Source: Armatimonadota bacterium
Lineage (GTDB): Bacteria; Sysuimicrobiota; Sysuimicrobiia; Sysuimicrobiales; Humicultoraceae
Direction of reading: 5' to 3'
Length of the DNA: 31,583 nucleotides
Assembly: GCA_037446215.1 (NCBI GenBank)
Contig: JBBIJB010000019.1
Coordinates: 1-31,583 of the forward strand
The position numbers and the translations under genes were made by a program. Shown here one piece after another: positions 2,812-31,583 of this stretch. The notes under the pieces are model-generated. The model saw nothing but the letters and a program-made list of their open reading frames with translations, did not search any database and had not been told where the DNA came from. Position 1 is the first letter of the stretch. Every line of letters starts with the position of its first letter.

Positions 2812-2837
2812 AACCGCGCGGCTGCCCTAGACATTCC
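2812..2837 (-). promoter_or_regulatory. SigR/SigH-type autoregulatory promoter GGAAT-N18-GTT
   Basis: Minus strand GGAAT-GTCTAGGGCAGCCGCGCG-GTT, ending 9 nt before the sigma ATG at 2802. Confidence 0.8.
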
Positions 2838-3309
2838 GGATTCGCCGCCGATCTCCCTTTCGGGTCCGGGCCTTCGCCCGGGCGGAGGAGTCGGCGGCCT
2901 GCTCGGTGCCGGCCCCGAGATCCGCCAGGGTCAGCATGTCCAGGGCGCCCCTTGCCGCCGCCTCTATCGCCCTCCAGACAGGGCGAACCCCGCACTCCGA
3001 AGCGTAGTCGCACTGGGGGGCCTCTCCTCCCGCGCACCACCAGGGCGCTATCCCCCCCTCCAGGGCCTCGAACGCCTCCCGCAGGGTTATCTCGGCCGGG
3101 GGCCGGGCCAGGGCGTGACCGCCCGAGGGCCCACGCTTGCTGATCACTATGCCGGCCCGGCGCAACACTGCCAGGAGGCGCTTGAGGTAGGGCTCGGGAA
3201 TCCCCTGCCGATCCGCGATCCCGCCGCTGTGCGCCATCCCTCTCCCGTGCCTTGCGGCGAGATCAAGCAGCGCGCGGAAACCGTACTCGGCGCGGGATGA
3301 TACCTTCAT
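2827..3309 (-). CDS. Rrf2-family transcriptional regulator with three Cys (probable Fe-S cluster)
   Basis: True start is MKVSSRAEYG (ATG 3309, ATGA overlap with the upstream gene). Motifs SKRGPSGGHALARPPAEITL and C-x7-C-x5-C. Confidence 0.92.
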   Translation of the reverse strand: MKVSSRAEYGFRALLDLAARHGRGMAHSGGIADRQGIPEPYLKRLLAVLRRAGIVISKRGPSGGHALARPPAEITLREAFEALEGGIAPWWCAGGEAPQCDYASECGVRPVWRAIEAAARGALDMLTLADLGAGTEQAADSSARAKARTRKGDRRRIRNV

Positions 3310-3716
3310 CGAGTGATGAGCTCCTCCTCGCGAATCGCGCCGTCCCGGATCCAGAAGGCCCGGACCACGGCGTCCTCGGCGGCGCCGGAGCCGGGCAGCG
3401 AGACGATGACGTGCACCGCGTCCGGGTAGTACGCCTGCTCGACATCCCTGCGCGAGGGATAGGCCTGCGACCGCGTATGGGAGTGGAAGATGGCCAGCAT
3501 CTCCCACCCCAGTGCCGCGATACCGTTGAATATGCGAAGTTGGTCCTCCGGATCGAGCAGGAACGTGTAGGGCGAGGGCTCGGCGTTGGCGCCGCGAAAC
3601 AGCCCTTCGACGCGCCCCTCCCTACCCGCCAGAATGCCGCAGCACTCGTTGGGGAAGGCGTCGTGGGCGAGCTCGACCATTAGGGAGCGCAGACCTGTCG
3701 AGAGAACAAGGGCCAC
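3306..3716 (-). CDS. M67/JAMM (Mov34/MPN+) metallopeptidase, Mec/CysO-cysteine peptidase-like
   Basis: PNECCGILAG and the JAMM motif FHSHTRSQAYPSRRD; length and motifs match the Mec-like subfamily. Confidence 0.9.
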   Translation of the reverse strand: MALVLSTGLRSLMVELAHDAFPNECCGILAGREGRVEGLFRGANAEPSPYTFLLDPEDQLRIFNGIAALGWEMLAIFHSHTRSQAYPSRRDVEQAYYPDAVHVIVSLPGSGAAEDAVVRAFWIRDGAIREEELITR

Positions 3717-3723
3717 ATGCGCA

Positions 3724-3729
3724 ATTATA
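3724..3729 (-). promoter_or_regulatory. -10 element TATAAT 7 nt before the GTG start; probable leaderless transcript
   Basis: Minus strand GTG-TATAAT-TGCGCAT-GTG; no SD sequence. Confidence 0.6.
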
Positions 3730-3775
3730 CACGACCGTGCCTCGGGCCCGTCCGGGGCGCCCGGTGTGCCCTCGC

Positions 3776-4624
3776 CTACTCGTCGTAGAGGACAGTGGCC
3801 TCCGGGTACCGGCGCACCCGGTTGTCACGCAGCCGGGCGCGAACCAGCTCGTCCAGCCTGGCCTGCTTGGCCTCCTGGGACTCCGTCGAGCGCAGGACGG
3901 CCAGGTCTATGTTGACGCGCAGGGCCCGCTGGGGAATCAGGTGGCGGCTGATCCCTGTCGGCAGCTTCAAGGGCAACAGGGACGCCGCCCGGATGTCGTT
4001 CTTGGTGAACTCAGGGAAGCGCACAACAGCCGCGGCCCGCTCGTAGGCGGCCAGGAGCGGCGCGAGGTCGCCGGGCGGAACCCGGTAGATGGCGGTCCGG
4101 CCTCTGTACGCGGCGACGACTCGCACCACCGCCTCGATCTTCTCCGCCAGGCCGCCGGGCGAGGCGATGCCGAGCGCGCCCTCGGCCGTCACCAGGCCGC
4201 AGGCCGTCTCGCCCGAGGCTAGGCCCTCGTCCAGCGCCTCTTCGGAGAGGGGTGTCCAGGGGAGATCGCCGTGGCTCGTGAGCAGCAGCTTGAGGCCGTC
4301 TTCGAGCAGCAGATGCGCCCATACGTCGAGCCTCAGGGCGGGATCGTCGTAGTCTACGACCTGCGCGAGCTGGTGGGGAGCTCCCGAGAGGCCGAGGGCT
4401 GTCACCCTATTGGCTCCGTCGAGCACCACGTGGTTGAGCGAGTCCACGGGCGCGACGATCGGCGGGTTGCGCAGGATCCCGTCGGCCCTCATCGACTGGG
4501 CGAGCCGCCCCGTGCGGACGGGGTCGCACTCCTCATGAAGCAGCAGTGAGGAGGTCGGCACTATCCGCAGGTCTGGAAGCTTGAGATCGGAAGAGCCTGC
4601 TGATGCCTCGGTCAATTCCATCAC
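3776..4624 (-). CDS. ParB/Srx-fold protein, SbnI/SerK-like putative free L-serine kinase
   Basis: N-domain LLLHEECDPVR...LRNPPIV...VLDGANR. C-terminal LPTGISRHLIPQRALRVNIDLAVL...VRRYPEATVLYDE resembles the SbnI C-terminus as I recall it. No HTH. Start overlaps the lipB stop. Confidence 0.7.
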   Translation of the reverse strand: MMELTEASAGSSDLKLPDLRIVPTSSLLLHEECDPVRTGRLAQSMRADGILRNPPIVAPVDSLNHVVLDGANRVTALGLSGAPHQLAQVVDYDDPALRLDVWAHLLLEDGLKLLLTSHGDLPWTPLSEEALDEGLASGETACGLVTAEGALGIASPGGLAEKIEAVVRVVAAYRGRTAIYRVPPGDLAPLLAAYERAAAVVRFPEFTKNDIRAASLLPLKLPTGISRHLIPQRALRVNIDLAVLRSTESQEAKQARLDELVRARLRDNRVRRYPEATVLYDE

Positions 4625-9234: not shown

Positions 9235-10186
9235 AGGATCTCCCTGGACCGGACTGGGCGTGGTGATGCTCAAGGAGCTCGCAGACCACCTGTCGAGCGT
9301 CCGCATGAGGCTGCTCGAGGGCCTGATGCTGCTCACCGCCATCGGAACGGTCTTCGCGGCAACGCAGACACTCCGGCAGACCATTGGCGAGGATCCGTTC
9401 ATCTACCTTCGGATCTTCACTGTAGACAGGGATCCGCTCCCATCGTTCGTCGCCTTCATGGGATTCCTGATTCCGCTTGCGGCGATAGCCCTCGCGTTCG
9501 ACTCCATCAACGGCGAGCACATGCGCAGGACGATGAGCCGCGTGCTCGCCCAGCCGATCTACCGCGATGCGGTGCTGCTTGGGAAGTTCCTCGGAGGGAT
9601 AGCGACGCTGGGGACCACGCTGCTCTCCCTCTGGCTGCTGGTCACGGGCCTGGGAATCCTCCGCCTGGGGGTGATACCGGAGGGCTCCGAGGTAGCGCGC
9701 GGGCTGCTCTACCTGCTCACCACCCTGGCGTACGGAGGGGTGTGGCTGGCGCTCGCGCTCACCTTCTCCGTGGTGTTCAGGCAGCCCGCGACCTCCGCGC
9801 TGGCGGCGCTGGCGGTGTGGCTGTTCTTCGCGGTCTTCTGGGAGATCCTGGCGGACCTGGTCTTCAGCATCTCAGGCAGCCTGGTGGCGGGCGGCGGCGA
9901 TCCGATGGCGCCCGCCGAGTACCGGCTGTTCCTGTCGCGGCTATCGCCGAACACGCTCTACTCGGAAACGGTGCTGGCCCTGCTGAAGCCCGAGATGCGG
10001 ACCCTGGGCCCGCTGCGGGTCGCGATCCAGTCTCTCGAGGAGGCAGGCGCGATCCCGAGAACGATGCTGCCGCTCTCGCAGAGCCTCCTGCTGGCCTGGC
10101 CGCAGTTCACGGGGCTGCTGGCGGTCGTGATCGTCCTGTTCGCCGCCGCCTACCTATTGTTCCAGCGGCAGGAGGTCAGGGCCTAG
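9224..10186 (+). CDS. ABC-2 type transporter permease
   Basis: FDSINGE...[20 protein letters not shown] and about 6 TM segments; ends FQRQEVRA. Confidence 0.92.
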
Positions 10187-10225
10187 CCGCGAGGCCTCGG
10201 CCCCTATCCTGGGGGGCGAGAACTG

Positions 10226-10256
10226 ACAGGGCCGGCGGATGATCCGCCGGCCCTGT
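10226..10256. terminator. Perfect inverted repeat between convergent genes (likely bidirectional terminator)
   Basis: ACAGGGCCGGCGGAT-G-ATCCGCCGGCCCTGT. Confidence 0.7.
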
Positions 10257-10280
10257 GCTCGTGGCTGCCCCGCCGGGCCG

Positions 10281-11645
10281 CTAGCCCCTGGGCTGGAAGG
10301 CGGCCAGCCGCTCCATGGAGCGCTCGACCTCCTCCTGCGGATAGGCGAAGTCCTGCAGCCTGCCCGTGAGGTAGGCGTCGTACGCGGAGAGATCGAAGTG
10401 ACCGTGGCCGGAGAGCCCGAAGAGGATCGTGCGCGGCTTCCCCTCGGCCTTGGCCTCCAGCGCCTCGTCCACGGCCTTGCGTATCGCATGCGCGGCCTCG
10501 GGCGCGGGGATTATCCCCTCGGTGCGCGCGAACTGCATGGCGGCCTCGAAGACCGCGCGCTGGCCGTAGGCCGCGGCATCTATGTAGCCGTGGTGGGCGA
10601 GCAGGCACACGAGCGGCGCGCCGCCGTGGTAGCGAAGCCCGCCCGCGTGTATCCCCGGCGGCACGAAGTCGTGCCCCAGCGTGTGCATCTTGATCAGCGG
10701 AGTGGTCGCGGCCGTGTCGCCGAAGTCGTAGAGGTACTGGCCGCGGGTGAGCGTCGGGCAGGCCTCTGGCTCGACTGCGGCGAACCGAACCTGCTTCCCG
10801 CCGAACTTGTCGGGCATGAACGGAAACGCGAGCCCGGCGAAGTTGCTGCCGCCGCCGACGCACCCTATGACGACGTCGGGGTAGTCACCCGAGAGCTCCA
10901 TCTGCTTGTGTGCCTCGAGACCGATCACGGTCTGATGCAGCAGGACGTGGTTCAGGACGCTGCCGAGCGAGTACTTGGTCTCGCCGCTCCCCGCGGCGTC
11001 CTCCACCGCTTCGCTGATGGCTATCCCGAGGCTGCCCGGCGACTCGGGCGATGCTTCGAGGATCGCCTTGCCCGCTCTTGTGCGGTCGGTCGGGCTCGGG
11101 AGGACGTCGGCGCCCCAGGTCTGCATCATCAGCTTGCGATAGGGCTTCTGATCGTAGGAGACCCGGACCATGTACACCGTGCACTCCAGGCCGAACAACC
11201 TGCAGGCGAATGAGAGCGCGCTGCCCCACTGGCCGGCGCCCGTTTCCGTGGATAGCCGACGAACGCCCTCCTGCTTGTTGTAGAAGGCCTGCGCCACTGC
11301 GGTGTTCGGCTTGTGGCTGCCGGCAGGGCTCGTCCCCTCGTACTTATAGTAGATGCGCGCCGGCGTATCCAGGGCCGCCTCCAGCCTCCTGGCGCGGTAG
11401 AGCGGGGTAGGCCTCCACAGCCGGTAGACGTCGCGGACGGGCGCGGGAATCTCGACCTCGCGCTCGGCGCTCACCTCCTGGGCGATGAGCTCCGCCGGGA
11501 AGAGGGGCTCCAGGTCGGCAGGGCCTATCGGCTGCCCTGTACCGGGATGGATCACCGGCGCGGGCGGAACCGGAAGGTCCGCCGCTATGTTGTACCAGGC
11601 CTTCGGGAGATCGCTTTCGCCCAACACTATCTTGGTAGAGTCCAC
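10281..11645 (-). CDS. trpB2: Tryptophan synthase beta chain, TrpB2 type (stand-alone)
   Basis: [35 protein letters not shown] (PLP Lys), [24 protein letters not shown] and LSGHGHFD. Start chosen at GTG 11645 from GGAGG spacing. Confidence 0.95.
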
Positions 11646-11707
11646 TGCCAGCACCTCCCCTGATCTGGGGGCATGCGCGCGGGTGGTGCGCCCCGCGCTC
11701 CCCGGAT

Positions 11708-11997
11708 ATAAGAGTACCGGCCTCCGTGTTGGGACGGAGGCCGGTTCCGTGGTGCCACCCAGTTTCCGCCGGGGCAGGCCTTACGTCGGCACCATACCTC
11801 GACGCTGCCTGATCCTGCGGCGCTTGGGCCCGGTATCGGCGGGCAGCCGGTACGGCTAGTTGCTCGCCGGGCCAGCGAGCTGCCCGGCTCGTGTTCGCCG
11901 CACCCCTCCTGGGGCCATTCCGCGCCGCGCAGCGGCTGCCTTCCACCTGAGCAGCTCTCTGTGCGCCCGCCTGGCGCGTACTAGTCCCGATCATCGG
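11708..11997 (-). ncRNA. T-box riboswitch with Trp (UGG) specifier
   Basis: Stem I carries the GA motif (CGATGA), AGTA, AGAGAG box, GGTGGAA loop and specifier GAA-TGG-C (11915-11917). T-box AACTGGGTGGCACCACGG with CCGTCCC partner. Terminator stem 11716-11745. Confidence 0.92.
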
Positions 11998-12010
11998 GCG
12001 ATTTCGCGCT

Positions 12011-13858
12011 CTATTCGCCCCAGGGATCCGAATCCCTTCTCGGCGCGGGCAACATCTTGAGTTCGGTAGGCTCTTCAGGAGCGGCCTGAGGCCCTGGGGC
12101 GGGCTCGCCCGGCTCCTCCTTGTCGGGATGGGCCGTGGCCGGCCGCCTCTGGCGGGCCTGAAGCGCGCGCAGCCGGTTCAGGACCGCGGCCACCTCATGC
12201 TTGCGTGGCATCGCGTAGTCGGAGGCCGCCGCCTGCGCGGAGGCGAGCACGCCCAACCCTGAGGCGTCGATGTCGGCGAAGACGCGGTCCACGATCTCGG
12301 AGATCGAGGCGTTGCCGTCCACGTAACCCCTGTCGAGCGCGTGCAGTACGGCGTCTCCCGCGGCGCGTGCCTGGCCGGGATCTACGAGGTGGCGGAGACC
12401 GGAGAGGTCGACGGACTCGCGGCCGATGCCGGCAGCGGATCGCCCGCGCAACTCGGTGCGCGCGCCGCGGCTCTTGAAGCCCGCGAACCCACGCGGCAGG
12501 GGCACTCGGGGGACCGGGAGCGAGACCGGTCGGCCCCCGCGCGTCCGCCACCCGGGGAAGCCGCCGAAGATGGCGCGCGCCCGCTCCGTGGCGGCCTGAG
12601 GCCTGAAGCCCTCCATCAGGATCACCGTGTCGGCGACCGCTAGGTAGTCACCCAGCCCGCCCGTGGCTACAACGACGGAGACCCCGTGCTCCTCCCAGAG
12701 CGACCTCACCTGATCGACCAGCGCCGCGAGCGGCTCCCCCTCGCTGCCTACTAGCTGCCGCATGGCGGCGTCCCCGGCAAGGTAGGGAGTCGCGCCCTCG
12801 TCCTCGTCGAAGATAAGCAGGCCTGTGCCCATCTCGAGCGCCTCGGCAACGGCCGCGGCCATGGAGACGACCCCCGGCGCCCTCTCATAGGAGACGGAGG
12901 CCGCGCTGGGGCGGTTCGGGATCTCTCGGAATGCGGCCTGGAGATCCACCCGCTCGACGCGCCTGCCCGGCTCGGAGAGCACCACGACGGCATCGGGGCG
13001 CGCGGCAACCAACTCCCTGCCGTCCCCGGGCACGTGCGGGAAGACCCCCGAGGCCAGCGCTGAGATCAGCGTAGACTTCCCGGAGAACGCGCCGCCTGCG
13101 ACGACCGTCACGCCGAGCGGAAAGCCCAGGCCGCGCACGCGACCGCCGTTGGGCAGCTCCACCGTGACCGCGAGCTCCTCGGGCGCGGTGAGCGGCACCA
13201 CGCGCCCTCCGTGAAGCGGCCTGTCTGCGAAAGCGGACTCGCGGGGCAGCACAGAGCCGTCGGCGACGAAGGCGGCCAGCCCGAGCGAAGGCAGGGCGTC
13301 GCGCAGGTGGAGGTAGTCCTGAACGACCCGGACATGGCTCTGTGCCGCCTCTGCGTCGAGGTCCGGCCACGTGAGTCCTGAGGCCACAACCGCGGGGAGA
13401 TCCTCGGAGAAGAACGCCTGTGCCGGCTTGGTCGCGGCCTTTCGGCCTTCGGCCGGCAGCGCCAGGACACCCCTGACCTCCACGTAGTCCTCGTGCAGGG
13501 CCACGCAGTTGCGGGCCAGGATCTCCTGCCCTCCCGCCTCAACCGTGAGCGGCGCGACCCTACCGGGCCAGCGTGTCCGCACGTGCTTGTGGGCGGCGTC
13601 TCTCATGCTGCGTGCGAGGAAGTCCTCCACCGCCAGCCGGCCGCTGGGCTCCGACCACAGCGCCCGCGGCACCCGGGCCTCGGCCTGGTCCACCCGGATC
13701 CTGAAGCGGGCGCTCGGGACGGCCGCCTCGGCCTGAACGCCTTCGATGTGGAGCTCGAAGCGATCGAAGCGGTAGGCCCCCGCCACCTCCCGGTAGACCT
13801 GCAGCCCCTTGCCGTTTGCGACGATCAGCTTGTCGCGAAGTCGCTCTGAGGGAAACAT
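12011..13858 (-). CDS. COG3044-type 'ATPase of the ABC class' (ABC_ATPase domain), divergent
   Basis: AFVADGSVLPRES, Walker A GGAFSGKST, HVPGDGRELV and EALEMG..LLIFDED. Start taken at ATG 13858. Confidence 0.8.
   Translation of the reverse strand: MFPSERLRDKLIVANGKGLQVYREVAGAYRFDRFELHIEGVQAEAAVPSARFRIRVDQAEARVPRALWSEPSGRLAVEDFLARSMRDAAHKHVRTRWPGRVAPLTVEAGGQEILARNCVALHEDYVEVRGVLALPAEGRKAATKPAQAFFSEDLPAVVASGLTWPDLDAEAAQSHVRVVQDYLHLRDALPSLGLAAFVADGSVLPRESAFADRPLHGGRVVPLTAPEELAVTVELPNGGRVRGLGFPLGVTVVAGGAFSGKSTLISALASGVFPHVPGDGRELVAARPDAVVVLSEPGRRVERVDLQAAFREIPNRPSAASVSYERAPGVVSMAAAVAEALEMGTGLLIFDEDEGATPYLAGDAAMRQLVGSEGEPLAALVDQVRSLWEEHGVSVVVATGGLGDYLAVADTVILMEGFRPQAATERARAIFGGFPGWRTRGGRPVSLPVPRVPLPRGFAGFKSRGARTELRGRSAAGIGRESVDLSGLRHLVDPGQARAAGDAVLHALDRGYVDGNASISEIVDRVFADIDASGLGVLASAQAAASDYAMPRKHEVAAVLNRLRALQARQRRPATAHPDKEEPGEPAPGPQAAPEEPTELKMLPAPRRDSDPWGE
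12013..12037 (-). promoter_or_regulatory. Putative AGGG-N17-GAAT promoter immediately upstream of the T-box
   Basis: Minus strand GAAGGGATTCGGATCCCTGGGGCGAAT; would place the TSS just before stem I. Confidence 0.5.
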
Positions 13859-13880
13859 CTTATGGACGCGCTCCCTGTGG

Positions 13881-15272
13881 TTATCGCCGTACCGCGGCGG
13901 CGGGCGGCTGGGCCCTGGAGAGGCCAAGCCGCTGACGTGCGAGGGCTACCGCCTGCACTAGCTGGCTGTCGCGCCCGCCGTCCAGATCGGCCAGCGAGAG
14001 CGCGACCGCCACATCGGGCGAGACGCCGACCCCCTCCAGCCGCCTTCCAAGCCCGGACGCGAGGCGAAGCACCGTGACGCTGAGGGCCGATCCGTCCGAG
14101 AGATCCTGGAAGATGCCCGCCTCTACCGCGCCGCTGGTCTTGGCCCCGACCAGGGTGGCCCTACCGTGCTCCTGAAGCGCGGCCGCCAGCAGCTCGGCGG
14201 CCGAGGCCGAGCTCTCGTCAATCAGGACCACCAGGGGCACGTGGGAGGGCAGGATCGGCACACCCGAGGTGCGCACTGTCCTGGTGACTCCTCCGCGGCT
14301 CGTCTCCTGGTAGATGGCACGGCCGGACGGTAGCAGCAGGTTCAGGACCGCGGCAAGCTCGTGCAGATAGCCTCCCGAGTTGGCGCGGAGGTCGAGCACC
14401 ACCGCCCGGGCACCGCCGCCCAGTACCCGCTCGAGGGCCTGCCGGAACTCCGCGCCTGTGCGGCTTATGAACTGGTAGAGGTGAAGGTGGCCGACCCCGC
14501 CCTCCATGACTCTCGCCTGGAAGATGGCCGGCACGTGAATGGGCGCCCTCACCAGCGTGACCGCCACCGTCCCCGCCGAGCCGGGCCTCTCCAGCGTCAG
14601 TGTCACCGGGGTACCGGAAGGGCCGCGAATGGTCCCGGCGACCTGCGAGATCTGGAGTCCGGCCGTCGAGGTCCCATCTATCCTCACTATCCTGTCGAGT
14701 GCCCGCATGCCGGCGGCCTCAGCCGGGCCGCCCGGTATTACATCCCGCACGTAGAATTTGCCCTCGCGGGACATCAGGACGATGCCCGTGCCCGAGAAGG
14801 CCGCCTGCTGACGTTGCCTAAGGATCCTCTCGCGGTTCTCCTCGGGCGTGACGAAGCCGGTGTGCGAGTCGTCGAAGACGGCCGTCATGGCCCTGATGGC
14901 GGCATAGGCGAGCGCGGCCTGGCTCAGCCGTCCGCCCGATGCGCCCGAGGCGGCGTCGAAGCGCAGGCGGAACTGCGCCTCAGCCGCGGCGAGCGCAGCG
15001 CCCTGTGGGAGATCCCCGAGATCAGCATGGATACCGGACGCCGACAGCGCGCTCCTCAACCCCCCGATGGCGGCGTTGAGCAGCGCCGCCGAGTCGACGG
15101 GGTCGACATAGCGCTCGCGCAACACACCGAGGGCTTCCAGGACCAGCCCGGCGCCCGAGGCCTGCGTACGAGGCATCGCGGGGGGAGCGAGCAGGAGCGA
15201 GACGGCAAGCAGCAGGACGAGTACCCGGCCCGTGACCCCGAGCGGACGCGTGCGCCTCAAGGCGGTGCTCAT
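13881..15272 (-). CDS. S41-family (CtpA-like) PDZ-containing C-terminal processing peptidase
   Basis: Signal peptide, DSHTGF, PDZ domain (GGPAEAAG..D.I..IDG), VLDLRANSGG, SASAAE and GVSPDV. Start overlaps the ccdA stop (TGATG). Confidence 0.9.
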   Translation of the reverse strand: MSTALRRTRPLGVTGRVLVLLLAVSLLLAPPAMPRTQASGAGLVLEALGVLRERYVDPVDSAALLNAAIGGLRSALSASGIHADLGDLPQGAALAAAEAQFRLRFDAASGASGGRLSQAALAYAAIRAMTAVFDDSHTGFVTPEENRERILRQRQQAAFSGTGIVLMSREGKFYVRDVIPGGPAEAAGMRALDRIVRIDGTSTAGLQISQVAGTIRGPSGTPVTLTLERPGSAGTVAVTLVRAPIHVPAIFQARVMEGGVGHLHLYQFISRTGAEFRQALERVLGGGARAVVLDLRANSGGYLHELAAVLNLLLPSGRAIYQETSRGGVTRTVRTSGVPILPSHVPLVVLIDESSASAAELLAAALQEHGRATLVGAKTSGAVEAGIFQDLSDGSALSVTVLRLASGLGRRLEGVGVSPDVAVALSLADLDGGRDSQLVQAVALARQRLGLSRAQPPAAAVRR

Positions 15273-30735: not shown

Positions 30736-31446
30736 CTACACGCGCTCGAGCTCCTGCATTATCTTGACCAGTCCGTCCCGACCGTCCGCGAACAGCATCC
30801 TGGTCCTGTCGAGGTAGAACAGCTCGTTGTCGACCCCCGCGAAGCCGGGGTTCAGGCTGCGCTTTATCACGATGACGTGGGCGGCCTTGTCGACGTCCAG
30901 GATCGGCATACCGTAGAGGGGGCTGGACTTGTCGTGGCGGGCCGCGGGGTTCACGACGTCGTTTGCCCCCAGCACCAGGGCGACGTCCGCCTTCGGGAAC
31001 TCGGGGTTGATCTCGTCCATGTCCAGCAGCTTCTCGTACGGCACGCTGGCCTCGGCGAGCAACACGTTCATGTGACCGGGCATGCGCCCCGCGACCGGGT
31101 GGATCGCGTACTTGACATCGACGCCGCGCCGCTCGAGCGCGTCCGCCAGGTCGCGCACCTCGTTCTGCGCCCTCGACGCCGCCAGGCCGTAGCCGGGCGC
31201 GATTATCACCGATTTCGCGTACCCGAGCAGGATCGCGGCCTCGTCGGGCGTTACCGACTTCACCGTCGGCCCGGCGGTCGTTCCCGCGGCCCCCACCACC
31301 GCCACCTCTGCTCCGAAGGCGCTGAAGAGGACGTTGGCGAGCGAGCGGTTCATCGCCCAGCACATGATCCGTGTGAGGATGACGCCCGAGGACCCAACCA
31401 GAGCGCCGCTGACGATGAGGACGTGGTTCTTCAGCACGAAGCCGGC
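30736..31446 (-). CDS. pntB: NAD(P) transhydrogenase beta subunit, C-terminal part only (last TM helices plus NADP(H)-binding domain III)
   Basis: GALVGSSG.IL..IMC.AMNRS, PGYGLA, IHPVAGRMPGHMNVLLAEA, GANDVVNPAA and KRSLNPGFAG. Similarity to PntB ends near 31446. Confidence 0.93.
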   Translation of the reverse strand, partial: AGFVLKNHVLIVSGALVGSSGVILTRIMCWAMNRSLANVLFSAFGAEVAVVGAAGTTAGPTVKSVTPDEAAILLGYAKSVIIAPGYGLAASRAQNEVRDLADALERRGVDVKYAIHPVAGRMPGHMNVLLAEASVPYEKLLDMDEINPEFPKADVALVLGANDVVNPAARHDKSSPLYGMPILDVDKAAHVIVIKRSLNPGFAGVDNELFYLDRTRMLFADGRDGLVKIMQELERV

Positions 31447-31583
31447 GAAGAACGTGAAGAAGCCCACGACACCACGCAGCAGACCCATCGCGGTTCCCGA
31501 CGCCAGGATCGAGGTGGAGTGCAGCTCCTTCTCCTCGAGCGGCGTCTCGAAGTCGTAGCGGTGCGCCTGGTAGAGGTCCACGT

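Follow-up and report, generated by a model that had tools for sequence, protein, structure and literature searches.

A tryptophan-specific T-box before a stand-alone trpB2 gene and a putative serine kinase inherited from a cysteine operon in an Armatimonadota bacterium

The window, which is the whole stretch of 31,583 nt analyzed here, carries on its minus strand a trpB2 gene encoding a type-2 tryptophan synthase beta chain, with a T-box leader and an ATPase gene upstream of it, and, elsewhere on the same strand, a putative serine kinase gene together with genes for a JAB/Mec-type peptidase and an Rrf2-family regulator (Table 1). The genome which holds the window (68% GC, 91% complete) is labelled G000 and its relatives are given other G numbers; positions are those of the window unless a contig or locus is named.

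Table 1. Features of the window with their positions, strand and the evidence for each
Feature	Position	Strand	Evidence or remark
Rrf2-family regulator (CymR/IscR-like), kinase operon	2827..3309	-	TIGR00738 over cut-off
JAB/Mec-type peptidase, orphaned cysteine-operon member	3306..3716	-	PF14464; behind cysM in relatives
SbnI/SerK-fold putative free L-serine kinase, 282 aa	3776-4624	-	Predicted fold and invariant residues
Inverted repeat between trpB2 and convergent ABC permease gene	10226..10256	.	Read from sequence
trpB2, type-2 tryptophan synthase beta, 454 aa; PLP lysine K112; R338 in GGLRYHG	10281-11645	-	TIGR01415 and NF009057 over cut-off
Intrinsic terminator, 12-bp hairpin (11745-11716) and weak U-rich tail	11706..11745	-	-24.5 kcal/mol
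Antiterminator with UGGC bulge (bulge from 11757)	11727..11760	-	-6.2 kcal/mol, weak
Trp-specific T-box leader (kink-turn, stem I, stem II and IIA/B, stem III, antiterminator)	11727..12003	-	RF00230 and covariation
Specifier loop GAA-UGG-C, 7 nt	11920-11914	-	UGG specifier codon 11915..11917
ABC-class ATPase (PF09818)	12011..13927	-	Profile match; upstream of T-box

The trpB2 gene and its T-box leader

The TrpB2 protein scored 649 bits against TIGR01415 (cut-off 518.85) and 137 against the TrpB1 model TIGR00263 (cut-off 392.45), and its best PDB matches were 6hul, 4qys and 6hte. The start of the gene was placed at the GTG at 11645, with a Shine-Dalgarno sequence at 11660-11652, and a start at 11654 was rejected. 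The inverted repeat which follows the gene is likely to be the end of its transcript, to judge from its sequence; it went unscored in the terminator scan, which requires a T tail.

A complete UGG T-box directly upstream of trpB2 had been proposed by the first-pass annotation, and the Rfam check bears this out. The leader matched the RF00230 covariance model over positions 1-219 of 219 with an E value of 1.8e-11, a full-length significant match containing the stem I motifs, the specifier loop and the T-box sequence, though its 55.6 bits lie under the curated gathering score of 93. At that threshold Rfam reports tRNA-Gln alone in the window. Scores below the gathering score were given by eight of the nine T-box matches in G000, where the other matches precede genes of the expected kind, namely ilvB, thrC, hisS, proS, the Ser operon, the thrS region, metG and ileS (gene names from translations; serS and thrS additionally from a second search). 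When 12 Trp leaders were aligned, both sides had changed in 10 of the 19 stem I pairs and 92.5% of the cells were paired; none of 500 shuffles was as high, and slid controls reached 40-48%, a comparison which is inflated by the stem I structure having been predicted from the same alignment. A covariance model built from these 12 leaders gives the window T-box 104 bits, being matched to it by construction.

Specificity was read from the specifier and the bulge. The specifier is UGG in all 11 orthologous leaders, and the bulge is UGGC in 10 of them and UGGU in G005. The base after UGG varies between A, C and G among the orthologues while UGG itself is invariant, and the codon register is therefore fixed. 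All six tRNA-Trp genes from five relatives have the 3' end G-CCA (G73), complementary to the UGGC bulge, the discriminator being taken from the relatives and the tRNA-Trp of G000 itself being unassembled. The alternative registers AUG (Met) and GGC (Gly) fail the discriminator test, as the tRNA-Met of G000 ends in A-CCA and its tRNA-Gly in U-CCA. As a positive control, the identical loop and bulge signature stands before the trp operon at 7 of the 12 operon loci fetched; no T-box motif was seen in the other five, whose sequences appear to begin downstream of the leader. The same signature heads an aroF-tyrA-trpS remnant in G001 and G002. By its UGG specifier and its bulge matching the tRNA-Trp discriminator, the leader is assigned as a Trp-specific T-box. 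Two separate Trp T-boxes were seen in one trp region of G030 (locus L202, 1648-2029 and 4203-4567).

The antiterminator and the terminator overlap, which makes them mutually exclusive, and the terminator stands 56 nt upstream of the Shine-Dalgarno sequence of trpB2; this arrangement points to a control which is most likely transcriptional. A scan of 10150-12150 gave the leader terminator as the sole terminator-like site, and no sigma-70-like promoter was found in a scan of the trpB2 region. The ATPase gene ends with its stop codon 7 nt ahead of the T-box match, so read-through from this gene may be gated by the leader. The same ATPase gene directly precedes trpB2 in several relatives which have no T-box, and its place upstream of trpB2 is conserved in many members of the phylum. 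A Trp-codon leader ORF at 11627-11674 on the minus strand (15 codons, two of them Trp, overlapping the trpB2 start) was also considered and is likely due to chance, being present in G000 and G002 only, that is in 2 of the 12 leaders.

The trpB2 gene was found in 61 genomes of the phylum and its 5' end was fetched at 55 loci. The 12-leader model gave a T-box at 11 of these 55 loci, nine of the 11 being members of its training set, and the other 44 were without a stem I match, one locus having just 139 nt upstream; the 3' half of the T-box alone remains in G020. Inside the genus the T-box is conserved in all six genomes with an assembled trpB2 5' end. Five of the 11 T-box-trpB2 genomes (G004, G011, G025, G030 and G031) also have trpA and trpB1, therefore the switch is older than the loss of trp genes and is not tied to it. 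Across the phylum loci no pattern was seen by which T-box presence would track the loss of trpA or the presence of tryptophanase. Of 80 trpB2 loci taken from the GTDB collection, 71 lie outside this lineage, and four of the 71 match the leader model, two with T-boxes directly upstream of trpB2 and two in the order T-box-trpS-trpB2.

Published precedents exist for this pairing. T-boxes lie on trpE and on a 'trpB-like' gene in Dehalococcoides (Wels 2008, PMC2494555), and Table S2 of Sun 2013 (PMC3766115), where trpB2 is the table's own naming, has the gene under Trp T-boxes in eight Firmicutes, two of them without a trp-operon entry; C. bartlettii (trpP; trpS; trpB2) and C. phytofermentans (trpS; trpB2) have no trp-operon T-box in that source. 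COG1350 is given as riboswitch-regulated in 47 of 834 cases, with 32 of 77 in Bacillota and 13 of 15 in Chloroflexota (PMC12452182, Tables S16-S17, whose rows do not state the riboswitch class). These sources describe the regulation, therefore the T-box-trpB2 half of the present finding is already known and the pairing adds just a new phylum to the published pattern. The likeness to clostridia and Dehalococcoides is that of a Trp T-box before a stand-alone trpB2, whereas the window's organism belongs to another phylum and its trpS is without a T-box. With the TrpB2_o group (Merkl 2007, PMC1854888; PDB 4qys) the window protein shares the family, the PLP lysine, the GGLRYHG motif and a place outside the trp operon; TrpB2_o, however, mostly accompanies an operon trpB1 (PMC1854888), and the window genome has TrpB1 and TrpA deleted.

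Loss of the de novo trp genes around trpS

The absence of trpA and other trp genes near trpB2, which had been noted from the window, extends to the genome: none of trpA, trpB1, trpC, trpD, trpF and trpE was found in G000 at its 91% completeness. Relatives show the order aroF-tyrA-trpEGDC-trpS-trpFBA (names in this region come partly from reading translations). G000 has trpS, 85% identical to that of G004, between tyrA and the genes which follow trpA elsewhere, on one contig without any N. With the G004 genes as queries, trpD, trpC, trpF and trpA gave no match in G000, and trpE, trpG and trpB1 led to paralogues only. The same excision around trpS is contiguous and without N in G001, G002 and G006, so that contiguity from tyrA through trpS to the next genes rules out an assembly gap in all four genomes. 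Seven de novo genes (trpEGDC and trpFBA) have been deleted around trpS in G000. Inside the genus trpA was not found in five of eight genomes; trpS was not found in G005, where either excision or an assembly gap may account for the loss. Two candidate matches were discarded, a PF00591 match which is a pyrimidine-nucleoside phosphorylase and not TrpD, and a chorismate-binding match which heads men genes (gene order read by eye).

The trpS of G000 (contig C18:11887-14950) no longer has a T-box, which leaves the trpB2 leader as the sole Trp T-box found in this genome; aroF has moved to contig C51. By gene content TrpB2 is the only visible Trp-forming enzyme of G000, and with the seven de novo genes deleted it can only salvage. 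The first-pass annotation had taken the T-box as evidence that TrpB2 supplies Trp. This argument keeps its strength in so far as the leader is specific for Trp and no route other than TrpB2 is visible, and it is weakened by the same regulation being already published and being present in five relatives which have trpA and trpB1. In G023 an opposite-strand gene occupies the usual place of trpB2 behind the ATPase gene (locus L277:3200-3900), and by its motif it is a candidate tryptophan 2,3-dioxygenase.

Indole would have to be available for such salvage. Two TnaA/TPL-family genes are present in all eight genus genomes. One of the G000 pair passes the TPL cut-off (contig C21), and the other has Asp and His at the positions where TPL has Thr and Phe, residues which we presume to mark a tryptophanase. 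This second protein reaches neither of the TnaA equivalog cut-offs, and TPL structures are its best matches in the PDB. Its gene is a possible source of indole. It lies on contig C26 (L194:3499-4911) between a rapZ/yvcK-like pair and nuoA, in what looks by eye like a housekeeping run.

The kinase as a relic of a cysteine operon

The kinase matched the SbnI model with E 3.5e-15 and 56 bits (cut-off 350) and scored 22 against the SerK model (cut-off 380), so it lies outside both equivalogs. Its predicted structure (pLDDT 90) has a TM score of 0.76 to SbnI 6nr6 and 0.64 to SerK 5x0b, and the top nine Foldseek matches are all SbnI or SerK-type with E <= 1e-13. The residues E31, D69, W102 and R227-H228 are invariant in 36 homologues, and E31 aligns with SerK E30. 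The model has the two-domain ParB/Srx kinase fold with catalytic Glu and Asp by which the SbnI/SerK fold superfamily is recognized, and it suggests a protein which works like the SbnI/SerK equivalogs but is not a member of them. In all, 79 of the genomes outside the genus have both kinase and cysM, four have neither and three are discordant (n=86), counts which are not independent as neighbouring genes share assembly gaps.

The gene context is that of cysteine synthesis. Among the best 30 kinase loci, the 23 from outside the genus all have cysM as the next gene downstream of the kinase gene. Most of them also have CBS or a MoaD-like carrier gene before the kinase and JAB downstream of cysM, and the fullest order is CGL-moaD(cysO)-CBS-kinase-cysM-JAB-rrf2 (loci including L241, L242, L243, L245, L246 and L113). 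All seven genus loci have lipB-kinase-JAB-rrf2. Mycobacterium tuberculosis has an O-phosphoserine route to cysteine encoded by mec-cysO-cysM. The relatives share with it a JAB peptidase, a MoaD/ThiS-like carrier and a CysM-type synthase in one operon, but they embed the kinase gene in that operon, and only kinase, JAB and rrf2 are left in the genus. The stretch 2827-4624 of the window is a relic of the cysteine operon, with which the kinase was inherited, and in the genus the kinase has outlived its cysteine clients. The same two-domain fold is found in SerK of Thermococcus kodakarensis (PMC5120207; 5x0b) and in SbnI of Staphylococcus (5uje, 6nr6), with TM scores of 0.64-0.76, but the window kinase has about 20% identity to them and stays under both family cut-offs. 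The known role of SerK is to feed cysteine synthase, namely CysK in Thermococcus (PMC5120207), which agrees with the context of the window kinase outside the genus.

Second CGL-CBS-kinase clusters are present in G004 (L306) and G005 (L307). Their kinase genes are interrupted and share about 50-54% identity with the window kinase, and the clusters may reflect decay, transfer or bin contamination. On metagenome contigs (L247-L262), kinase homologues of about 40% identity adjoin genes for a HAD hydrolase and an ECF sigma factor, and trpB2 gave no match there.

The kinase gene, about 6 kb from trpB2, had been suggested to provide the O-phosphoserine of TrpB2, and as evidence for such a link the proximity fails. 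The two ORFs are 5,656 nt apart with five opposite-strand genes between them, so the kinase belongs to another transcription unit, beyond the reach of the T-box. Co-occurrence, which had been named beforehand as the test by which the link could be refuted, gave no signal: the kinase is present in 88 of 94 genomes, in 57 of 61 with trpB2 (presence assigned by hand from the match table) and in 31 of 33 without it (Fisher p = 1), and family f4 has the kinase in 21 of its 23 genomes and trpB2 in one. G003 was rejected as a case of kinase without trpB2, its upstream ATPase gene ending at a contig end. Neither co-occurrence nor co-transcription was thus found for a dedicated module. Many relatives have both genes in one syntenic block which also holds lipB, mntR, an ECF sigma gene and ctpA, and the spacing of 5.7 kb reflects this conserved block, not a dedicated partnership. 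No kinase was found beside trpB2 at the 71 loci outside the lineage with tblastn and a family HMM, methods which could overlook a kinase that is very short and diverged. Nor was a link between TrpB2 and a serine kinase found in the mostly non-subscription literature and the supplements of three papers.

Supply of O-phosphoserine and the proposed salvage route

The gene cysM is present in none of the eight genus genomes and in 81 of 86 outside the genus, and orthologues of cysM, CBS and the carrier were not found in G000. Full-length serA is found in none of the eight and in 47 of the 94 genomes of the phylum; it sits between the aminotransferase gene and serS in G014, G036 and G030 and is missing from that place in G000, where the aminotransferase gene is retained under a Ser (UCC) T-box. 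Five genus genomes were searched further: all five have glyA, and none has a cysE over the cut-off or DUF1015, which has been proposed as another serine kinase (PMC13759103). Since the Ser operon has lost serA and no further kinase family was found, the kinase would by elimination be the sole recognizable source of O-phosphoserine, and TrpB2 its sole recognizable biosynthetic client in the genus, and the kinase probably supplies the O-phosphoserine of TrpB2 here. The first-pass proposal of the kinase as O-phosphoserine provider is retained in this weaker form, based on a genus which lost serA and its cysteine genes and kept the kinase; the idea of a dedicated partner is given up. The kinase is under purifying selection (dN/dS 0.13-0.36 over 21 genus pairs), and the orphaned JAB, lipB and rrf2 genes show similar values (0.11-0.58), so the fact that the kinase is retained does not by itself point to a role with TrpB2.

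Other possible sources and consumers were surveyed. A CysK-like protein is present in seven of the eight genus genomes, where cysM is absent (G000 contig C51, L003:1303-2517; L270-L274), and is closest to Fn1055 of Fusobacterium (5b53, E 1.7e-115), which converts Cys to Ser and H2S (PMC9865163). Because of this match it is likelier a source of serine than a sink of O-phosphoserine, and it is disfavoured as a replacement client. Two adjacent PALP proteins on contig C17 of G000 (L008, L009) have no NCBIfam match at 1e-28 and could consume O-phosphoserine. Five short D-2-hydroxyacid dehydrogenases are encoded in G000, none adjoining the aminotransferase gene; one of them could act as SerA, and of the four scanned none reaches a PGDH cut-off, while for two the glyoxylate reductase score is the higher one.

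The route which we propose would work as follows. When Trp is low, uncharged tRNA-Trp would pair at both the UGG specifier and the UGGC bulge and block the terminator, and trpB2 would be transcribed; the leader anatomy is observed, and the switching step follows the known T-box mechanism. TrpB2 would then join an activated serine to free indole and so form Trp, as characterized TrpB2 enzymes do. The indole may come from neighbours or from the organism's own tryptophanase-like enzyme, and the O-phosphoserine would most likely be made from free serine by the SbnI/SerK-fold kinase. As a whole, salvage by a T-box-gated TrpB2 with O-phosphoserine supplied by a kinase of cysteine-operon inheritance is the best explanation we have, and we hold it with modest confidence. 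A more extended version is put forward tentatively and is rated somewhat short of probable: gene loss (trpEGDCFBA in part of the genus; serA, cysO, cysM and CBS) would have re-purposed the kinase, so that serine to O-phosphoserine, plus indole, to Trp is the sole Trp route, with the loop closed by the cell's own tryptophanase, which would cleave Trp in times of plenty, and Trp being made again once tRNA-Trp is uncharged.

It is also conceivable that TrpB2 uses plain L-serine, provided by GlyA, peptides or the Fn1055-type lyase, and that the kinase serves some other purpose and has no part in Trp synthesis. The absent association of kinase and trpB2 would fit this, as would the presence of glyA and the Fn1055-type lyase as serine sources, and some TrpB2 enzymes were first assayed with serine. 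Against it, the R338 column has Arg in seven of seven TrpB2 and Asp in two of two TrpB1 proteins, this Arg being what we take to be the O-phosphoserine determinant, and a search for other clients of the kinase gave no clear one. Use of O-phosphoserine by TrpB2 is moreover credited to Busch 2014 in PMC11917138. We consider the plain-serine explanation unlikely, and give slightly less weight again to O-phosphoserine made from 3-phosphoglycerate by a short, ACT-less SerA and the aminotransferase under the Ser T-box, with a kinase that is secondary or runs serine assimilation. SerK-type serine assimilation is described (PMC5120207, PMC13759103), and the five dehydrogenases and the retained aminotransferase would supply the parts, but serA has been removed from the operon, no dehydrogenase gene stands beside that of the aminotransferase, and the profile scores given above speak against a PGDH.

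Two further explanations are given very little credence. If trpB2 and the kinase were a co-selected two-gene module and their proximity reflected this, the one syntenic block of many relatives would be explained, but the block conserves genes as unrelated as lipB, mntR, the ECF sigma gene and ctpA, the kinase tracks cysM outside the genus and has it as direct neighbour at all 23 outside loci among the best 30, and neither the co-occurrence counts nor the 71 outside loci give any sign of it; for the phylum this module is largely refuted. Just as improbable is a decaying T-box, with trpB2 simply expressed or silent and the regulation uninformative on current function. The score below gathering, the weak U tail, the 44 loci without stem I match and the half leader of G020 could be taken in that sense, but all motifs of the leader are intact and covarying, conservation holds in six of six genus genomes with an assembled 5' end, and TrpB2 has a dN/dS of 0.06-0.18.

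The kinase-supplied salvage route offers, for one lineage, an answer to where the O-phosphoserine of TrpB2 comes from when the phosphorylated serine pathway is missing, and it gives a small testable set of enzymes. It also marks these uncultured bacteria as Trp auxotrophs which indole and serine might rescue, a hint for cultivation. Among the remaining features, the window ends with a pntB fragment (30736-31583), with a scaffold gap just past its end, and G000 also encodes a tRNA-Sec.
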